From assembly GCA_019058445.1 (NCBI GenBank), contig JAHPZA010000005.1, positions 52,276 through 116,275 on the forward strand: a DNA stretch of 64,000 nt, read 5' to 3'. The notes under the pieces are model-generated. The model saw nothing but the letters and a program-made list of their open reading frames with translations, had not been told where the DNA came from and made no database searches. Of this stretch, positions 6,012 through 11,500 are shown in pieces (position 1 is the first letter of the stretch; the number at the start of each line of letters is the position of its first letter). The translations under genes were made by a program, and so were the position numbers. Source of the DNA: Promethearchaeota archaeon (GTDB lineage: Archaea; Asgardarchaeota; Lokiarchaeia; Sigyniarchaeales; SOKP01).

Positions 6012-6278
6012 TTAGGAGCTTACCAATCGAAATAATAAGGCGCCATGAGGAATGTAGAATTCGTCTTTTCTCTTTATCACGACGGTATGAAAATACTCCG
6101 CCAGTCCGAGAAACCCTCTTATCACACTCTCGTCTTCTTCAAATTTAAATGTTATATTTGATATTGCCGATCCTGTATTAAAGGCGACCTTCTCATAAAC
6201 ACGCTCATCGATTAAGGGAATTTTTAATTCATTGACGATTTCATAAACTCGCTTAATAAATAATTCTTTTTTAGCCAT
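6012..6278 (-). CDS. Small hypothetical protein (88 aa)
   Basis: Clean ATG ORF with GTGATG upstream in otherwise non-coding space; no recognisable motif. Confidence 0.7.
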   Translation of the reverse strand: MAKKELFIKRVYEIVNELKIPLIDERVYEKVAFNTGSAISNITFKFEEDESVIRGFLGLAEYFHTVVIKRKDEFYIPHGALLFRLVSS

Positions 6279-6553: not shown

Positions 6554-7720
6554 TTAATTAATAGAAATGGGGTACTTTCCATGTTTTAAAATCACTTTAA
6601 AGATTGTTGGGATCGAAGCTAACATGTGCATAAAGGAGGGAAAACCTTCTGATATACCCATAAGAAAGTTATCTCCAGGAGCGGCATCCTTCAACATTTC
6701 CAATGTCTTTTTCTTTACTGCCTTTTGACCTTGAAGGCATACAGGTTCAGGGAAGTTAGCCCAAATTACTTTATCTTTCCATGACTCTTTAGCTTCATTA
6801 ATGGGAAGATTTCCTACAGGAGGTGCCGTGAAACTCTCAATGGCATCAATTCTTGTTTTCGCAATAAGCTCCTTTAAAGCTTTTAACTCGCCATCCATAT
6901 GTACAACATATAGTTTATCATGTTTATGGAAGATATCTGCTACTTCATTATAGAAAGGCAGACTATATTTCTCGAAAAATTTTGGACTAGTAACTAGAGA
7001 AGTAACGTTATCAGGACCCCAAATTACTTCACAAGGGGATTCTGCTGCAATTTTATAAACCTCCAGTTCTTTTTTATAAATAATTTTGTAAAGCTCATCA
7101 AATTCCTTTTGATGCATATAATAATCTAAAGCCAATCTTTTCGGTCCCATAAGCATAATTAATGATTGAAGAGGAGATTTTGGAACAAAGGAGGGGACAA
7201 TCCCAAAATCACCGATAAACATTTGAAATTCCTCAATTTCATCATAAAAAGGGCTATATTCAGTATCCTCTATAATATATTTTAATACTTCATAATCCTC
7301 AAGAGTTTTGAGGAAATATCCATCTTCTGGAAACCAAGGAAGGTTCGCAGAAAGGTCAAGACTTTCCATTTTTGCTTTTACTGAAAGTTTCCCTCTTGGA
7401 GTACTTAAACTTCCGGTTATATCGTGAGGGGTATTAAATGCTATCATAATATCTACCGGTGACCAAGAAGTTTTATTCCCATAATGATGGTTAATATCCA
7501 TCTTAGTATTTGGACAAGAAACTTTATGTGTCTGAACTGCCAAAGCAGCATGTAATCCAAGCCCTTTGTCTAATAGTTTTCTCCATGGTTGATAAAGAGC
7601 TAATCCAGCTAAATATTTTGTTTCCACATAGATAGTAAATGGTATCATATCGGGAGGTTCTCGTCGAAGAACTGCCATTATTCTTTCTTTTGCATTCAAC
7701 TTTTTACCCACCTCATACAA
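6554..7720 (-). CDS. URO-D/MtaA-family methyltransferase-like protein
   Basis: KERIMAVLRREPPD..P N-terminus, SPKFFEKY.LPFY, VHMDG, C-terminal TIM-barrel pattern; overlaps the corrinoid gene. Confidence 0.8.
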   Translation of the reverse strand: MYEVGKKLNAKERIMAVLRREPPDMIPFTIYVETKYLAGLALYQPWRKLLDKGLGLHAALAVQTHKVSCPNTKMDINHHYGNKTSWSPVDIMIAFNTPHDITGSLSTPRGKLSVKAKMESLDLSANLPWFPEDGYFLKTLEDYEVLKYIIEDTEYSPFYDEIEEFQMFIGDFGIVPSFVPKSPLQSLIMLMGPKRLALDYYMHQKEFDELYKIIYKKELEVYKIAAESPCEVIWGPDNVTSLVTSPKFFEKYSLPFYNEVADIFHKHDKLYVVHMDGELKALKELIAKTRIDAIESFTAPPVGNLPINEAKESWKDKVIWANFPEPVCLQGQKAVKKKTLEMLKDAAPGDNFLMGISEGFPSFMHMLASIPTIFKVILKHGKYPISIN

Positions 7721-8343
7721 ATATTAACACCATCCATCGCATTTTTCGCATAAGCATCTGCTCCGATATCCTTTATAAACTCTTCAGTGACAGGAGCGCC
7801 ACCAACAATAACTTTTACTTCTTTTCTTAGATTTGCCTCTACTAAAGCTTTCATTAAATTACCAACTTCAGGTAAAGTCATAGAGACTAAAGCGGATATG
7901 GCAACTATATCTGGATTTTCAGCGCGTATAGCTTCAATAAACCTTTCTGAAGACACATCAACACCTAAATCAATGACCTCAAAACCTTCTGCTTCTAAAA
8001 AAGTTATAACCACATTCTTTCCTATATCGTGTAGATCTCCTTTCCCTGTTCCGATTATAACTTTGGCAAGAGCATTTTTATCACCTTTTTCTTTAATTTG
8101 AGGTTCAAGTATTTTCATTGTCTCTTTTATAATTTCACCAGCCATGATAAGTTCAGGAATGAAGAATTCTTCAGCTTCAAATTTATCACTGATAATATTT
8201 GCTGCTTTTGCGATTCCTTCTTGAATTATCTTATATGGATGCATTCCTTTAGCAATCGCATCTTCACATACTTTCTTGGCCATTTCAATATCCATCTCGA
8301 TTACCGCTTTTATATACTGACTTATACTATTTTCTTCTGTCAT
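7696..8343 (-). CDS. Corrinoid (B12-binding) protein, MtaC/MtbC family
   Basis: EFFIPELIMAGE cap domain, GDLHDIGKN (DxHxxG), DLGVDV, GGAPV, ADAY..NA..G. Confidence 0.95.
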   Translation of the reverse strand: MTEENSISQYIKAVIEMDIEMAKKVCEDAIAKGMHPYKIIQEGIAKAANIISDKFEAEEFFIPELIMAGEIIKETMKILEPQIKEKGDKNALAKVIIGTGKGDLHDIGKNVVITFLEAEGFEVIDLGVDVSSERFIEAIRAENPDIVAISALVSMTLPEVGNLMKALVEANLRKEVKVIVGGAPVTEEFIKDIGADAYAKNAMDGVNICMRWVKS

Positions 8344-8458: not shown

Positions 8459-8512
8459 ACTATAATTTTAATATAGTCAGAAAATACTATAATTTTAATA
8501 TAGTCAGAAAAT
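8459..8512. repeat. Perfect 27-bp tandem duplication in the divergent promoter region
   Basis: ACTATAATTTTAATATAGTCAGAAAAT occurs twice head-to-tail (8459-8485, 8486-8512). Confidence 0.95.
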
Positions 8513-8574
8513 ATACTAGTAAATAAATTTAGGATTAATCTATTTTTAAAAATATTAGAGGAATTGATTAAATA

Positions 8575-9348
8575 GTGGTTTCAAAGGAACAGAAGAAGTT
8601 AAATCGTGTGATGAATTTTCTAAAAAAAGGTTTATCCGGTTTAGCAGATGAGTTAGAAGGTACAATTAAAGGAATAAATGAATTCTTAGACTCCCTTCAA
8701 AAAGCTCAAAAAGATTTAAAGGGAGTCGAATCTGAAGAAGAAGTTGTTACTGTAAGCACTTCCTCTACGAAAATTGCTACTCCCAGTCCTGAGACTGCAA
8801 AAACTGCAGCTGCAAGTACGTTATTTAGTTTATTGAGCGGAACTGGAGGTGAAGCAGCTCCAGGCTCCGCACCAGTAGCAGCTGCTGCTTCAGGTGGACT
8901 TCCTAAAACGCCTTCAGGCGGTGGACCTCCTAAAGCACCTTCAGGCGGTGGGCCTCCAAAGGCACCTCCAGGCGGTGGGCCTCCAAAGGCACCTTCAGGC
9001 GGTGGGCCTCCAAAGGCACCATCAGGCGGTGGGCCTCCAAAGGCACCATCAGGCGGTGGACCTCCAAAGGCACCATCAGGCGGTGGGCCTCCAAAGGCAC
9101 CATCAAGTGGGTTACCTCCGGCTCCAAAACTTCCTCCTGCCCCTGGAACAGGCGCCCCTCCTACAGCACCAGGTGGCGTGAAACCGCCAGCTTTTGCAAA
9201 AAGAGCAGGACCTCCTGGAGCTCCAGGAGCACCCCCCGGTGGAGCAGCCCCAGCAGTAGCAGCTCAACCTGGCGGAGGTTTGAGTTCACTTAGAGATGAA
9301 ATGTTGGATGAATTAAATCGTCTAAAGAAAATTATGCGTGGAGAATAA
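8575..9348 (+). CDS. Proline-rich protein: N-terminal coiled coil, SGGGPPKAP repeats, C-terminal WH2/VASP-like helix (candidate actin regulator)
   Basis: GTG start after GAGGA; heptad-like N-terminus; Pro/Gly tract; C-terminus GGGLSSLRDEMLDELNRLKKIMRGE; immediately upstream of an actin-family gene. Confidence 0.8.
   Translation: MVSKEQKKLNRVMNFLKKGLSGLADELEGTIKGINEFLDSLQKAQKDLKGVESEEEVVTVSTSSTKIATPSPETAKTAAASTLFSLLSGTGGEAAPGSAPVAAAASGGLPKTPSGGGPPKAPSGGGPPKAPPGGGPPKAPSGGGPPKAPSGGGPPKAPSGGGPPKAPSGGGPPKAPSSGLPPAPKLPPAPGTGAPPTAPGGVKPPAFAKRAGPPGAPGAPPGGAAPAVAAQPGGGLSSLRDEMLDELNRLKKIMRGE
8914..9102 (+). repeat. Coding minisatellite, 7 x 27 bp, encoding (S/P)GGGPPKAP
   Basis: Units of the form TCAGGCGGTGG(A/G)CCTCC(T/A)AA(A/G)GCACC(T/A), directly abutting with no spacers. 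Confidence 0.95.
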
Positions 9349-9515
9349 GAGTTTTAACAAAACATTACTTTCTTTTCCTATATCTGTTCAATTTTATTGT
9401 TACAATATATAAAGTATTTTAAATTCAATTTCTTTGTATAAAATTAAATAGAAAAATATGAATTATATAATCAAAGTACATTTTTATTTTAAATAGATTT
9501 AAGTGATTAAATTTT

Positions 9516-10634
9516 ATGGGTAATCTTACTGTTGTTTTAGATATTGGTCAATTTTCGTCTAAAGCGGGTTTCGCAGGTGAAGATTTCCCATCTCAGGTAT
9601 TTTTTACCATTGTTGGTAAACCTAAATATCATAATCTTGATGCGCAATATGGTGGAGGAGCCGAACAGGAAGTTTATGTAGGAGAGGAGATTCAATCTCT
9701 TGGACTTTATAAAATTACCTCACCAATTAATAAAGGAAAAATAATTGATTGGAGTTATTTCGAAAAGATTTTGGACTATATTTTTTATAATTTAAGAGTT
9801 GATCATACTTTAGTAAACGTATTATTTGCTATTCATCCATTGTTTCCTAAAAAAGATCTCCAAAAAATATTCGAATTGTTTTTAGAGCATTATCAATGTA
9901 TGGGATTTTATCCTGTTTTAGACTCTTTATGTACTCTTTATTCTGGTGGATTTCAAACAGGATTAATTATAGAAATTGGAGATAGTAGTACAAGAATCGT
10001 ACCTATTTATAATGGATATAAAATAGATCATGCAATTAAAATTTTAGAAATTGGTGGAAGAGCTCTTACCCGGTATATGGAAACTCTTTTAGGATCCATA
10101 GGGTTTGCTTCTGATTCATCAATAAGGAGAGAATTAGTTCGAGTTTTAAAAGAAAAAGCATGTTTTGTTTCTTTGGATTATAAGGAAGATCTGAAAAGAA
10201 GTGAAGAATATACCAAACAATATTCATTACCCGATGGGGCGACTATTTCTTTATCCAAAGAAAGATTCATTCTTCCGGAAGCTCTATTCAATCCCTCCTT
10301 AATAAATTTAGAACATTATTCATTACCAGAAGCAATAATGGATGTAATTGAATTATGTGATGTTGATATTAGGGCTGAATTGTTAAATAATATCTTTTTG
10401 TCAGGAGGTTCTTCTATGTTTCCAAATCTTAAAAATAGAATATATCAGGAGCTTGAACTCTTGATGGCAAGAAAAAAAATAGACAATCAAGGTATAAAAA
10501 TTATTGCCCCAAGAGAGAGAACTTTTTCGGTGTGGGTTGGAGGATCCATTTTATCGATGATCCCGGAATTTTCTGACAATTGGATCACTCGGGCGAAATA
10601 TTATAAGGACGGCATTCCAGAAGACTTTATATGA
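9516..10634 (+). CDS. Actin-related protein (divergent Asgard-type actin homologue)
   Basis: VVLDIGQFSSKAGFAGED.P, IGDSSTRIVPIY.GY, KEK.CFVSLDY, YSLPDG, ERF..PEALFNPS, CDVDIR..L..NI.LSGGSSMFP, IIAP.ER.FSVWVGGSILS. Confidence 0.97.
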   Translation: MGNLTVVLDIGQFSSKAGFAGEDFPSQVFFTIVGKPKYHNLDAQYGGGAEQEVYVGEEIQSLGLYKITSPINKGKIIDWSYFEKILDYIFYNLRVDHTLVNVLFAIHPLFPKKDLQKIFELFLEHYQCMGFYPVLDSLCTLYSGGFQTGLIIEIGDSSTRIVPIYNGYKIDHAIKILEIGGRALTRYMETLLGSIGFASDSSIRRELVRVLKEKACFVSLDYKEDLKRSEEYTKQYSLPDGATISLSKERFILPEALFNPSLINLEHYSLPEAIMDVIELCDVDIRAELLNNIFLSGGSSMFPNLKNRIYQELELLMARKKIDNQGIKIIAPRERTFSVWVGGSILSMIPEFSDNWITRAKYYKDGIPEDFI

Positions 10635-10757: not shown

Positions 10758-11126
10758 TTGGTGTGTTATTTGGAAGAACTTCCTGAAAAAAGTTTCAATA
10801 AACAAAGTATGATGAGTAAATACGATTTATTTAACAAAATCAAGGGAATTAATACTCCTGTAAAAAGCGATATTTTGATTGCTCTCTTGGATGGAGAATA
10901 TCATTCTGAGACAGAATTAATCAGATTAGCAAAAAAAAGGGGTACAAATTATCTTGGAGCAGTAACTTTAGGAACCATGGTCAATTCATTGAATCATTTA
11001 TTAAAAAGTAATTATGTAGAGAAACAATTTGTAAATGGTGAAATGAATTATAAAATCTCCGATAATTATGTAGGCCTTACGCGAGCAGCATATAATAACT
11101 GGCAGCATAAAGCATTTAAATATTAA
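10758..11126 (+). CDS. Winged helix-turn-helix-like protein (paralogue 1)
   Basis: ILIALLDGEYHSETEL resembles BirA/ArsR-type HTH helices, followed by a helix and a beta-wing (VEKQFVNGEMNYKI); true start may be a later codon. Confidence 0.65.
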   Translation: MVCYLEELPEKSFNKQSMMSKYDLFNKIKGINTPVKSDILIALLDGEYHSETELIRLAKKRGTNYLGAVTLGTMVNSLNHLLKSNYVEKQFVNGEMNYKISDNYVGLTRAAYNNWQHKAFKY

Positions 11127-11131
11127 GGGGA

Positions 11132-11500
11132 ATGATTTTGGATAAATTAGGAAAAGAATTTAATATTTCTACACTTATGAAAATCGTCTTTAAACCAGAA
11201 TATTCCAATATGTTCAATAAGATCACTAATATAAATGCTCCTGTAAAAAATGACATCCTAATAACTCTTTTAGATGGGAAATACCATTCTCAAACCGAAA
11301 TTATAAGACTCATTAAAAAAAAACATCAATATCTCGGTCCAATAACTCTTACGACCATGATAGAATCTTTGAATAGTCGCACAAAAAATAATTACTTAGT
11401 AAAAAAGATTGTAAATGGAAGAATTTACTATAAAATCTCTGATAATTATGTTGGCCTCACAAAGGCTGCTTTTACAAAATTCAGGTTTGCAAATATTTGA
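11132..11500 (+). CDS. Winged helix-turn-helix-like protein (paralogue 2)
   Basis: Clear paralogue of the upstream ORF (PVK.DILI.LLDG.YHS.TE, YLG..TL.TM, YKISDNYVGLT.AA); GGGG just upstream of the ATG. Confidence 0.65.
   Translation: MILDKLGKEFNISTLMKIVFKPEYSNMFNKITNINAPVKNDILITLLDGKYHSQTEIIRLIKKKHQYLGPITLTTMIESLNSRTKNNYLVKKIVNGRIYYKISDNYVGLTKAAFTKFRFANI

Follow-up and report, generated by a model that had tools for sequence, protein, structure and literature searches.

An Asgard protein family with a conserved, reused terminal helix and a recurrent small neighbour gene

The gene prp was analyzed in a stretch of 64,000 nt (the window) from the Promethearchaeota archaeon assembly GCA_019058445.1 (contig JAHPZA010000005.1, forward strand 52,276–116,275), where it lies directly upstream of a gene for an actin paralogue, actinP. 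Its product is a real member of a large, unnamed and previously undescribed Asgard-wide family, and the helix at its C terminus, judged from alignments, is a portable and nearly invariant module. The better-supported gene neighbour of prp is w88, which encodes a small alpha/beta protein and adjoins prp in at least six taxonomic families, versus one for actinP. We put at about 0.5 the probability that prp is a multivalent tether or adaptor, with w88 as co-factor, whose end helix docks on some conserved receptor. An initial annotation had proposed a proto-WASP/VASP actin regulator: the plan of a coil, a Pro-rich tract and a terminal helix stood, while a factor of this kind dedicated to actinP was not supported, either by synteny beyond the window's own taxonomic family (f1; other families are likewise given f numbers) or by tests for WH2, VASP and WASP features.

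The prp protein and its terminal helix

Coordinates are given in Table 1. The GTG start of prp was confirmed by its homologues, which begin MVSKEQKK. An AlphaFold2 model built on a 23-sequence alignment contained three helices, the second over STLFSLLSG, and a disordered middle. Sequence and model thus bore out most of the initial description, namely a 257-residue open reading frame (ORF) with a short helix in a Ser/Thr/Ala region, a Pro/Gly tract and a terminal helix. In place of the N-terminal coiled coil that had also been described, the model predicts one long, single helix; PDB similarity of this segment was to generic designed coiled coils alone. The seven SGGGPPKAP units that had been counted are present, six in this form and one as PGGGPPKAP.

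Table 1. Positions in the window of prp, its parts and the two neighbouring genes discussed (pLDDT, predicted local distance difference test)
Feature	Position	Strand	Description and evidence
prp, gene for a putative coil/tether/docking-helix protein of 257 aa	8575..9348	+	GTG start, TAA stop; >235 homologues; no Pfam family
Long N-terminal helix, residues 4–49 (predicted)	8584..8721	+	AlphaFold2 pLDDT >90; conserved block in 120 homologues
Second, short helix, residues 72–87, with AKTAAASTLFSLLSG motif (predicted)	8788..8835	+	AlphaFold2 pLDDT about 60
Disordered basic Pro/Gly/Ala tract, residues 95–232	8857..9270	+	Composition, alignments, AlphaFold2
Tandem DNA repeat, 27 bp x 7.1 copies, encoding (S/P)GGGPPKAP x7	8914..9105	+	Tandem Repeats Finder, 95% matches
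Conserved island in Pro tract, LPPAPKLPPAP	9112–9144	+	Alignments
Conserved island in Pro tract, PAFAKR	9187–9204	+	Alignments
C-terminal helix, residues 236–254, LSSLRDEMLDELNRLKKIM (putative docking helix)	9280..9336	+	Alignments; AlphaFold2 pLDDT about 90
actinP, divergent actin paralogue	9516..10634	+	Pfam Actin 4.3e-85; 40% identity to the genome's Lokiactin
w88, 88-aa alpha/beta protein	6012..6278	-	Recurring prp neighbour phylum-wide; single-copy in window genome

The tract at residues 95–232 is 32% Pro, 25% Gly, 20% Ala and 8% Lys with a net charge of +12, and the DNA that encodes it has a G+C content of 0.63, compared with 0.31 for the window. Repeat copy number differs between relatives, and homologues span 204–278 aa. 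Separately, an exact 27-bp direct repeat in two copies (8459..8513) was found in very AT-rich DNA about 60 bp 5′ of the prp start; it may have a regulatory role or be the scar of an insertion.

A word-indexed search retrieved more than 235 prp homologues, every one labelled "hypothetical" and all from Promethearchaeota/Lokiarchaeia assemblies. The gene was carried by 35 of 41 related genomes, and a prp profile matched 226 genomes in a phylum-wide search of 400 Asgard genomes. Soluble full-length forms were found in f1–f7 (the whole class) and in f19, f20, f26 and f27, the last being Odin-type small genomes; one genome of the same order as that of the window (G171) is Ca. Lokiarchaeum ossiferum B-35. 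The blocks conserved among homologues were the N-terminal helix, TVSTSS, AKTAAASTLFSLLSG, LPPAPKLPPAP (residues 180–190), PAFAKR and, most of all, the tail. In the short helix, A79, A80, L83 and L87 were invariant across the order, and distant soluble forms carried an equivalent PhixxLL(S/T)G motif.

The C-terminal helix was conserved both within the order and beyond it. Within the tail (residues 233–257, GGGLSSLRDEMLDELNRLKKIMRGE), 13 positions were invariant order-wide (L239, R240, E242, M243, L244, E246, L247, R249, L250, K251, I253, M254 and G256). The core was kept across the phylum, its L, M, E and R residues being invariant in 24 phylum-wide sequences, with the consensus LRxEMLxELxRLKxxM and, in f19, the variant LRNEMMAEIKRIKEIF. 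On a helical wheel drawn with the alignments, the variable positions 241, 245, 248, 252 and 255 shared one face, which leaves over half of the surface of the helix under constraint. Such constraint would be expected of a helix buried in the groove of a partner or in a bundle.

When 1.84 billion representative proteins were searched with a profile of the tail (39 positions), 76 matched at E ≤ 1e-3, and 74 of these were scanned for domains. The helix recurred on proteins of other architectures. In f9, f11, f13, f16, f18, f28 and f31 it ends proteins made of one or more N-terminal transmembrane segments, a coiled coil and a Pro-rich linker, and the profile matches included multi-pass membrane proteins with a Pro-rich tail followed by the helix, as well as proteins with two or three tandem helices (P0132, P0124, P0126 and P0156). 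One architecture consisted of a Ras-like GTPase, then PPPP, the helix or helices, and a Cys-rich domain (CPxCG...GIPCCxCF), which matched no Pfam family. Of the 74 scanned proteins, six carried Ras/Roc and one TIR, and no Snf7 or actin-binding domain was present among them. The TIR-containing protein, P0169, is metagenomic and fuses a complete prp-like protein, helix included, to a transmembrane segment and to a TIR domain at the C terminus (TIR_2, 6.3e-18). Elsewhere in the window's own genome (G000:C9:173184–173672, minus strand), a 163-aa ORF contains a copy of the helix, LRDQMLDELNNLREII, and behind it a Cys-rich domain (CPICQ...GIPCCKCF) of the kind that in other Asgard genomes is fused to Ras-like GTPases or stands after two or three tandem helices. 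A genome profile search also gave a third, weaker helix candidate. The prp tail itself had no sequence match in PDB, and an ESM Atlas feature search gave no usable match to it.

Gene neighbours of prp

Gene order in f1 was scored in 46 genomes or loci. In 37 of the 46 loci, w88 was found upstream of prp and no more than 1.5 kb away; it was divergently oriented in 36, and was typically separated from prp by about 300 bp, head-to-head. The arrangement in the window is different in that two methyltransferase-system genes split the pair, here and in the closest relative, with 36 other f1 genomes retaining the head-to-head arrangement; this looks like a recent insertion into a shared w88/prp promoter region. 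As read from the sequence, the intervening segment (6554–8343, minus strand) contains a URO-D-like gene (6554–7720) and a gene for a B12-binding domain (7696–8343). Outside f1, w88 adjoined prp in the same direction in f3 and tail-to-tail in f19, f26 and f27, and was also adjacent in f21; in at least two public assemblies the locus tags of w88 and prp are consecutive. That the two genes stay adjacent in distant families although their relative orientation changes speaks for a functional link, beyond mere inheritance of gene order.

The distribution of w88, counted in the sampled genomes of each family, tracked that of soluble prp. w88 was present in 12/13 genomes of f1, 2/2 of f2, 12/15 of f19, 6/6 of f21, 3/3 of f26 and 4/4 of f27, and in none of the sampled genomes of f9, f11, f13, f16, f24, f25, f28 and f31. 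Six of the latter (f9, f11, f13, f16, f28 and f31) are families with the membrane-anchored helix, and from this we infer that w88 acts together with the N-terminal portion of soluble prp and is not itself the receptor of the helix. All 390 w88 homologues are annotated as "hypothetical", and no Pfam family matched. The w88 model was confident (pLDDT 92) and runs from a helix through strands to a second helix and three further strands; a roadblock-like topology (alpha-beta-beta-alpha-beta-beta-beta) is a tentative reading of it at most.

Taken together with the conservation and reuse of the terminal helix, these data are the basis for reading prp as a tether or adaptor. The N-terminal helix would oligomerise prp, whose arms (about 140 residues, basic, Pro-rich and varying in length with the repeats) would then display several docking helices, by which a single conserved partner in the cytosol would be captured or clustered. 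Proteins that carry the helix on a membrane anchor would bring this partner to the membrane, and in lineages with the soluble form w88 would work with prp, most likely via its N-terminal part.

Several points weigh against this proposal. It names no receptor for the terminal helix, and both oligomerisation through the N-terminal helix and partner binding by the terminal helix are inferred. In five genomes of f20, which has soluble prp, w88 was not found; in f2 (genus g14), w88 and prp are on separate contigs; and extra w88 paralogues do not lie beside helix-bearing genes. Comparisons of the w88 fold with PDB and the ESM Atlas gave no convincing relative (best Foldseek E 0.3, VIA Z 4.4, and sub-domain matches in the Atlas). 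Finally, kin share gene order by descent, so the counts within f1 overstate independence and the adjacencies across families are the informative ones.

The second neighbour, actinP, was confirmed as an actin-family gene co-oriented with prp, its start 167 bp downstream, as the initial annotation had it. The window's genome has six actin-family loci, actinP included. The synteny of the pair, proposed earlier as a check, held in f1, where actinP was downstream of prp in 40 of the 46 genomes, and did not hold beyond it. Even within f1, a PIG-L-family gene of 249 aa lay between prp and actinP in 31 of 46 genomes, so that prp and actinP directly side by side, as in the window, are the minority state. 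The intervening gene encodes a PIG-L/LmbE deacetylase (PF02585, 3.9e-22; e.g., L047:2298–3041) and is not at that position in the window. Orthologues of actinP in f1 were 62%–95% identical; in f2, the candidates were 47%–55% identical and lay 44–70 kb from prp or on another contig; and in f4–f7, where prp is present, no actinP orthologue was found, the best match being an ordinary Lokiactin at 41%. Linkage of prp with actinP was absent in f2–f7 and in the other classes examined. By these distributions, prp is older and more widespread than actinP and therefore cannot be its dedicated partner, as had been suggested; actinP is best regarded as a family-level syntenic neighbour.

Compared with Lokiactin, actinP has DIGQF in place of DNGTG, Asp in place of the Gln of AMQAV, and EIGDSSTR in place of DIGDGVSH, changes in the phosphate loop and catalytic site. 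This suggests an Arp-like protein in which ATP hydrolysis is altered or lost. Two tandem paralogous ORFs of 122 aa (10758–11126 and 11132–11500), which matched no Pfam family, follow actinP and hold the same place in other f1 genera; as the pair stays beside actinP, its products may be candidate actinP partners.

In f2 and f4, genes around prp were purA, an Eco57I-like methylase, an ECF transporter, MoaA/MoaE, EamA and one Ras GTPase. Neither there nor around the genes of three other helix-bearing proteins did the neighbourhood include a cytoskeletal or ESCRT gene. In f20 and f21, a conserved membrane protein flanks a soluble prp-like gene (L117:4947–6002, L118:779–1777 and L105:8538–9485), and the f21 protein begins with an N-terminal zinc ribbon (CPRC...CRYCG).

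Candidate receptors for the terminal helix

The first candidate receptor is actin. Alongside it, Asgard archaea possess profilins and gelsolins, whereas no factor that nucleates, elongates or tethers their filaments to membranes is known (PMC9433394; PMC13716822). On this reading the terminal helix would bind Lokiactin or actinP, for example in the subdomain 1/3 groove, and oligomeric, Pro-rich prp would cluster, nucleate, elongate or sequester actin, with membrane-anchored relatives coupling actin to the membrane. We regard this as unlikely. Likewise doubtful is the fuller version, in which the helix is an archaeal actin-binding element with no sequence relation to WH2. The family, soluble and oligomeric in Loki-type lineages and anchored in the membrane or fused to GTPases in others, would then nucleate, elongate or tether filaments of Lokiactin at membranes, with w88 as co-factor, and so supply the machinery that is missing in Asgard archaea. 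The architecture of prp does fit the logic of actin-assembly factors, the synteny with actinP in f1 is consistent with it, and the tandem helix arrays of P0132, P0124, P0126 and P0156 recall tandem WH2 nucleators. Actin was present in 380 of 400 Asgard genomes and in 90 of 90 of high quality; it thus qualifies as a universal partner, and for the same reason its distribution cannot be used to test whether the helix has Lokiactin as its partner. On the other side, the synteny is restricted to f1, often with PIG-L interposed, prp persists where actinP is distant or absent, and its neighbours elsewhere are housekeeping genes. No actin-binding domain was fused to the helix among the 74 representatives, and the tail had no PDB match by sequence.

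A close archaeal parallel in plan is arcadin-2 of Pyrobaculum, a regulator of crenactin whose gene lies beside that of crenactin; an unstructured linker joins its core to a conserved helix at the C terminus, which binds in a groove of crenactin (PMC5173319). In both proteins a structured or coiled segment comes first, then a linker that is not conserved, and last a small conserved helix, and both genes lie beside an archaeal actin. However, no sequence similarity between the two was detected (PDB searches gave no arcadin chain), the Asgard helix lacks the key tryptophan of arcadin-2, adjacency of prp to actin is confined to f1, and the helix of prp is reused on many proteins.

At E ≤ 1, neither whole prp nor its last 54 residues matched WH2 (PF02205), EVH1, VASP_tetra (PF08776) or any other Pfam family, so that the Pfam check proposed for its C terminus returned neither WH2 nor the VASP tetramerisation domain. 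WH2 consists of a short amphipathic helix, a linker of about four to six residues and an extended LKK[T/V]. In prp, only N-R separates L247 from L250-K-K-I, and the AlphaFold2 helix runs straight through LKKI; the initial annotation had itself remarked that this spacing was not that of a textbook WH2, and the two-residue gap and continuous helix agree. It had also noted the lack of an acidic Trp tail, which prp and its homologues corroborate: the protein ends ...KKIMRGE, three residues past the helix, with no connector (C) or acidic, Trp-containing (A) region of the kind that activates Arp2/3. As in WASP, WAVE and WIP, a Pro-rich region precedes an amphipathic helix with LKK near the C terminus, and relatives have tandem arrays; prp differs from these proteins in having no PF02205 match, C/A region or acidic Trp tail, and in the two-residue, helical link to LKKI.

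The likeness to Ena/VASP EVH2 lies in an oligomerising helix (presumptive in prp), a Pro tract resembling GGGPPxAP and an amphipathic helix that is short and basic. These parts stand in reverse order, the would-be oligomerising helix, which is the only long one in prp, being at the N terminus, and prp has no EVH1, WH2-like G-actin-binding motif or VASP_tetra. The VASP F-actin-binding motif (as in PMC10340426), to which the prp tail had been likened, and the tail of the genome's own ESCRT-III protein (below) were each scored against the hidden Markov model of the helix with 5000 shuffles. The VASP motif scored 0.9 bit, a value reached by 877 of 5000 shuffles (18%), and the likeness noted by eye therefore carries no statistical weight.

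Profilin delivery along the Pro tract is weakened for a Loki-type protein by the report that Loki and Odin profilins do not bind VASP polyproline, whereas those of Heimdall and Thor bind weakly (PMC8410842). Published proteomic tables of L. ossiferum were also consulted. The prp homologue of this organism sits between UYP44327.1 and UYP44329.1, which by interpolation corresponds to about GNAMCCOK_00619–00621. No entry from GNAMCCOK_00618–00623 was present in the Lokiactin co-immunoprecipitation list down to a log2 ratio of -1.06 (bioRxiv 10.1101/2025.11.30.690169, Suppl. Table 2); their absence speaks only weakly against a stable complex, because the identifier is interpolated and because the bona fide profilin Pro1 reaches only 0.31 in the same sheet (bioRxiv 10.1101/2025.11.30.690169). 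Among the best ~2,000 rows of the proteome sheet, 00621 and 00622 were the only entries from this range, and one of them may be the homologue.

A second candidate partner is a small-GTPase module, in which the helix would dock on or regulate Asgard Ras-like GTPase systems by binding the Cys-rich domain, an associated domain or the GTPase itself, with prp acting as scaffold or competitor. Among the known domains found in fusion with the helix, Ras/Roc was the most frequent (6/74); the helix precedes the Cys-rich domain by 20–30 residues in several architectures (P0122, P0124, P0126, P0156, P0173, P0174 and P0184); the window's genome has the ORF combining helix and Cys-rich domain; and in genus g17 the divergent neighbour of prp is a Ras-family GTPase. 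However, Ras or Cys-rich domains occur in a minority of helix-bearing proteins, most lineages have no such link in the neighbourhood, and the Cys-rich domain belongs to no Pfam family, which together make a GTPase module distinctly improbable as the partner.

The helix was also compared with the MIM1 tails of ESCRT-III proteins, which are read by the MIT domains of Vps4 (PMC7240154). If prp carried a MIM1-like tail read by an MIT domain, of Vps4 or another protein, the scaffold would be tied to ESCRT-type membrane remodelling. Both are terminal amphipathic helices behind a flexible, Pro-containing linker, with hydrophobic residues at i, i+4 and i+7 and a basic residue at i+8. The Vps20/32/60-like ESCRT-III protein of the window's genome ends ...KLQEEIEKLKKELSE, a tail conserved in about 100 homologues, and shares with the prp helix the pattern Phi-x-x-E-Phi-x-[KR]-L-[KR]-K-x-Phi, which, although defined post hoc from these two sequences, occurs four times in 4,855 open frames, three of them C-terminal. 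We nevertheless consider this very unlikely. The ESCRT-III tail scored 1.1 bit against the helix profile, a value reached by 389 of 5000 shuffles (8%), so that the profile similarity is not significant; it fell outside the top 20 matches to the profile in the genome; and no ESCRT-III protein was retrieved from the 1.84 billion, with no Snf7 domain among the 74 representatives or in prp. The consensus Arg of MIM1 is Glu in prp. Genes beside prp in two Odin-type genomes were those of purine biosynthesis and w88, with no ESCRT genes. No MIT or Vps4_C match exceeded the curated cut-off in the window's genome, which is 92.6% complete, so that absence is not shown.

The remaining alternative dispenses with an external receptor: the terminal helix would form a coiled-coil bundle or fold back on the N-terminal helix. 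The heptad-like spacing of L239, M243, L247, L250 and M254, with conserved flanks of e/g type, would suit a multi-helix bundle, tandem copies could bundle within one molecule, and VASP has a C-terminal tetramerisation helix (PMC10340426). Against this, there was no VASP_tetra match, the AlphaFold2 monomer had no confident packing (predicted template modelling score 0.22), and the phylum-wide invariance of charged residues and the reuse of the helix on unrelated proteins fit an external receptor better. Self-association is accordingly judged a slim prospect, and docking of the helix on a conserved receptor is the reading that we prefer.

Meaning for Asgard archaea

New here are the adjacency of w88 and prp across families, the complementary distributions of w88 and the membrane-anchored helix, the shuffle tests of the F-actin-binding and ESCRT-III likenesses, and the look-up in the co-immunoprecipitation table. 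The analysis corrects the inference first drawn from gene order, in that adjacency to actin is local to f1 and adjacency to w88 is not.

The prp family joins a modular logic of eukaryotic kind with membrane-anchored and GTPase-fused versions and a constant small partner gene, w88, and is a testable candidate hub for the organisation of the Asgard cytoplasm or cortex, whichever partner binds. If the receptor of the helix were actin, the family would fill the place of the actin-assembly factor that is missing in the prokaryotes closest to eukaryotes, as a pre-eukaryotic functional counterpart of WASP, VASP or formin-type factors. If it were not, the helix would represent a new, Asgard-specific recruitment code common to dozens of proteins.

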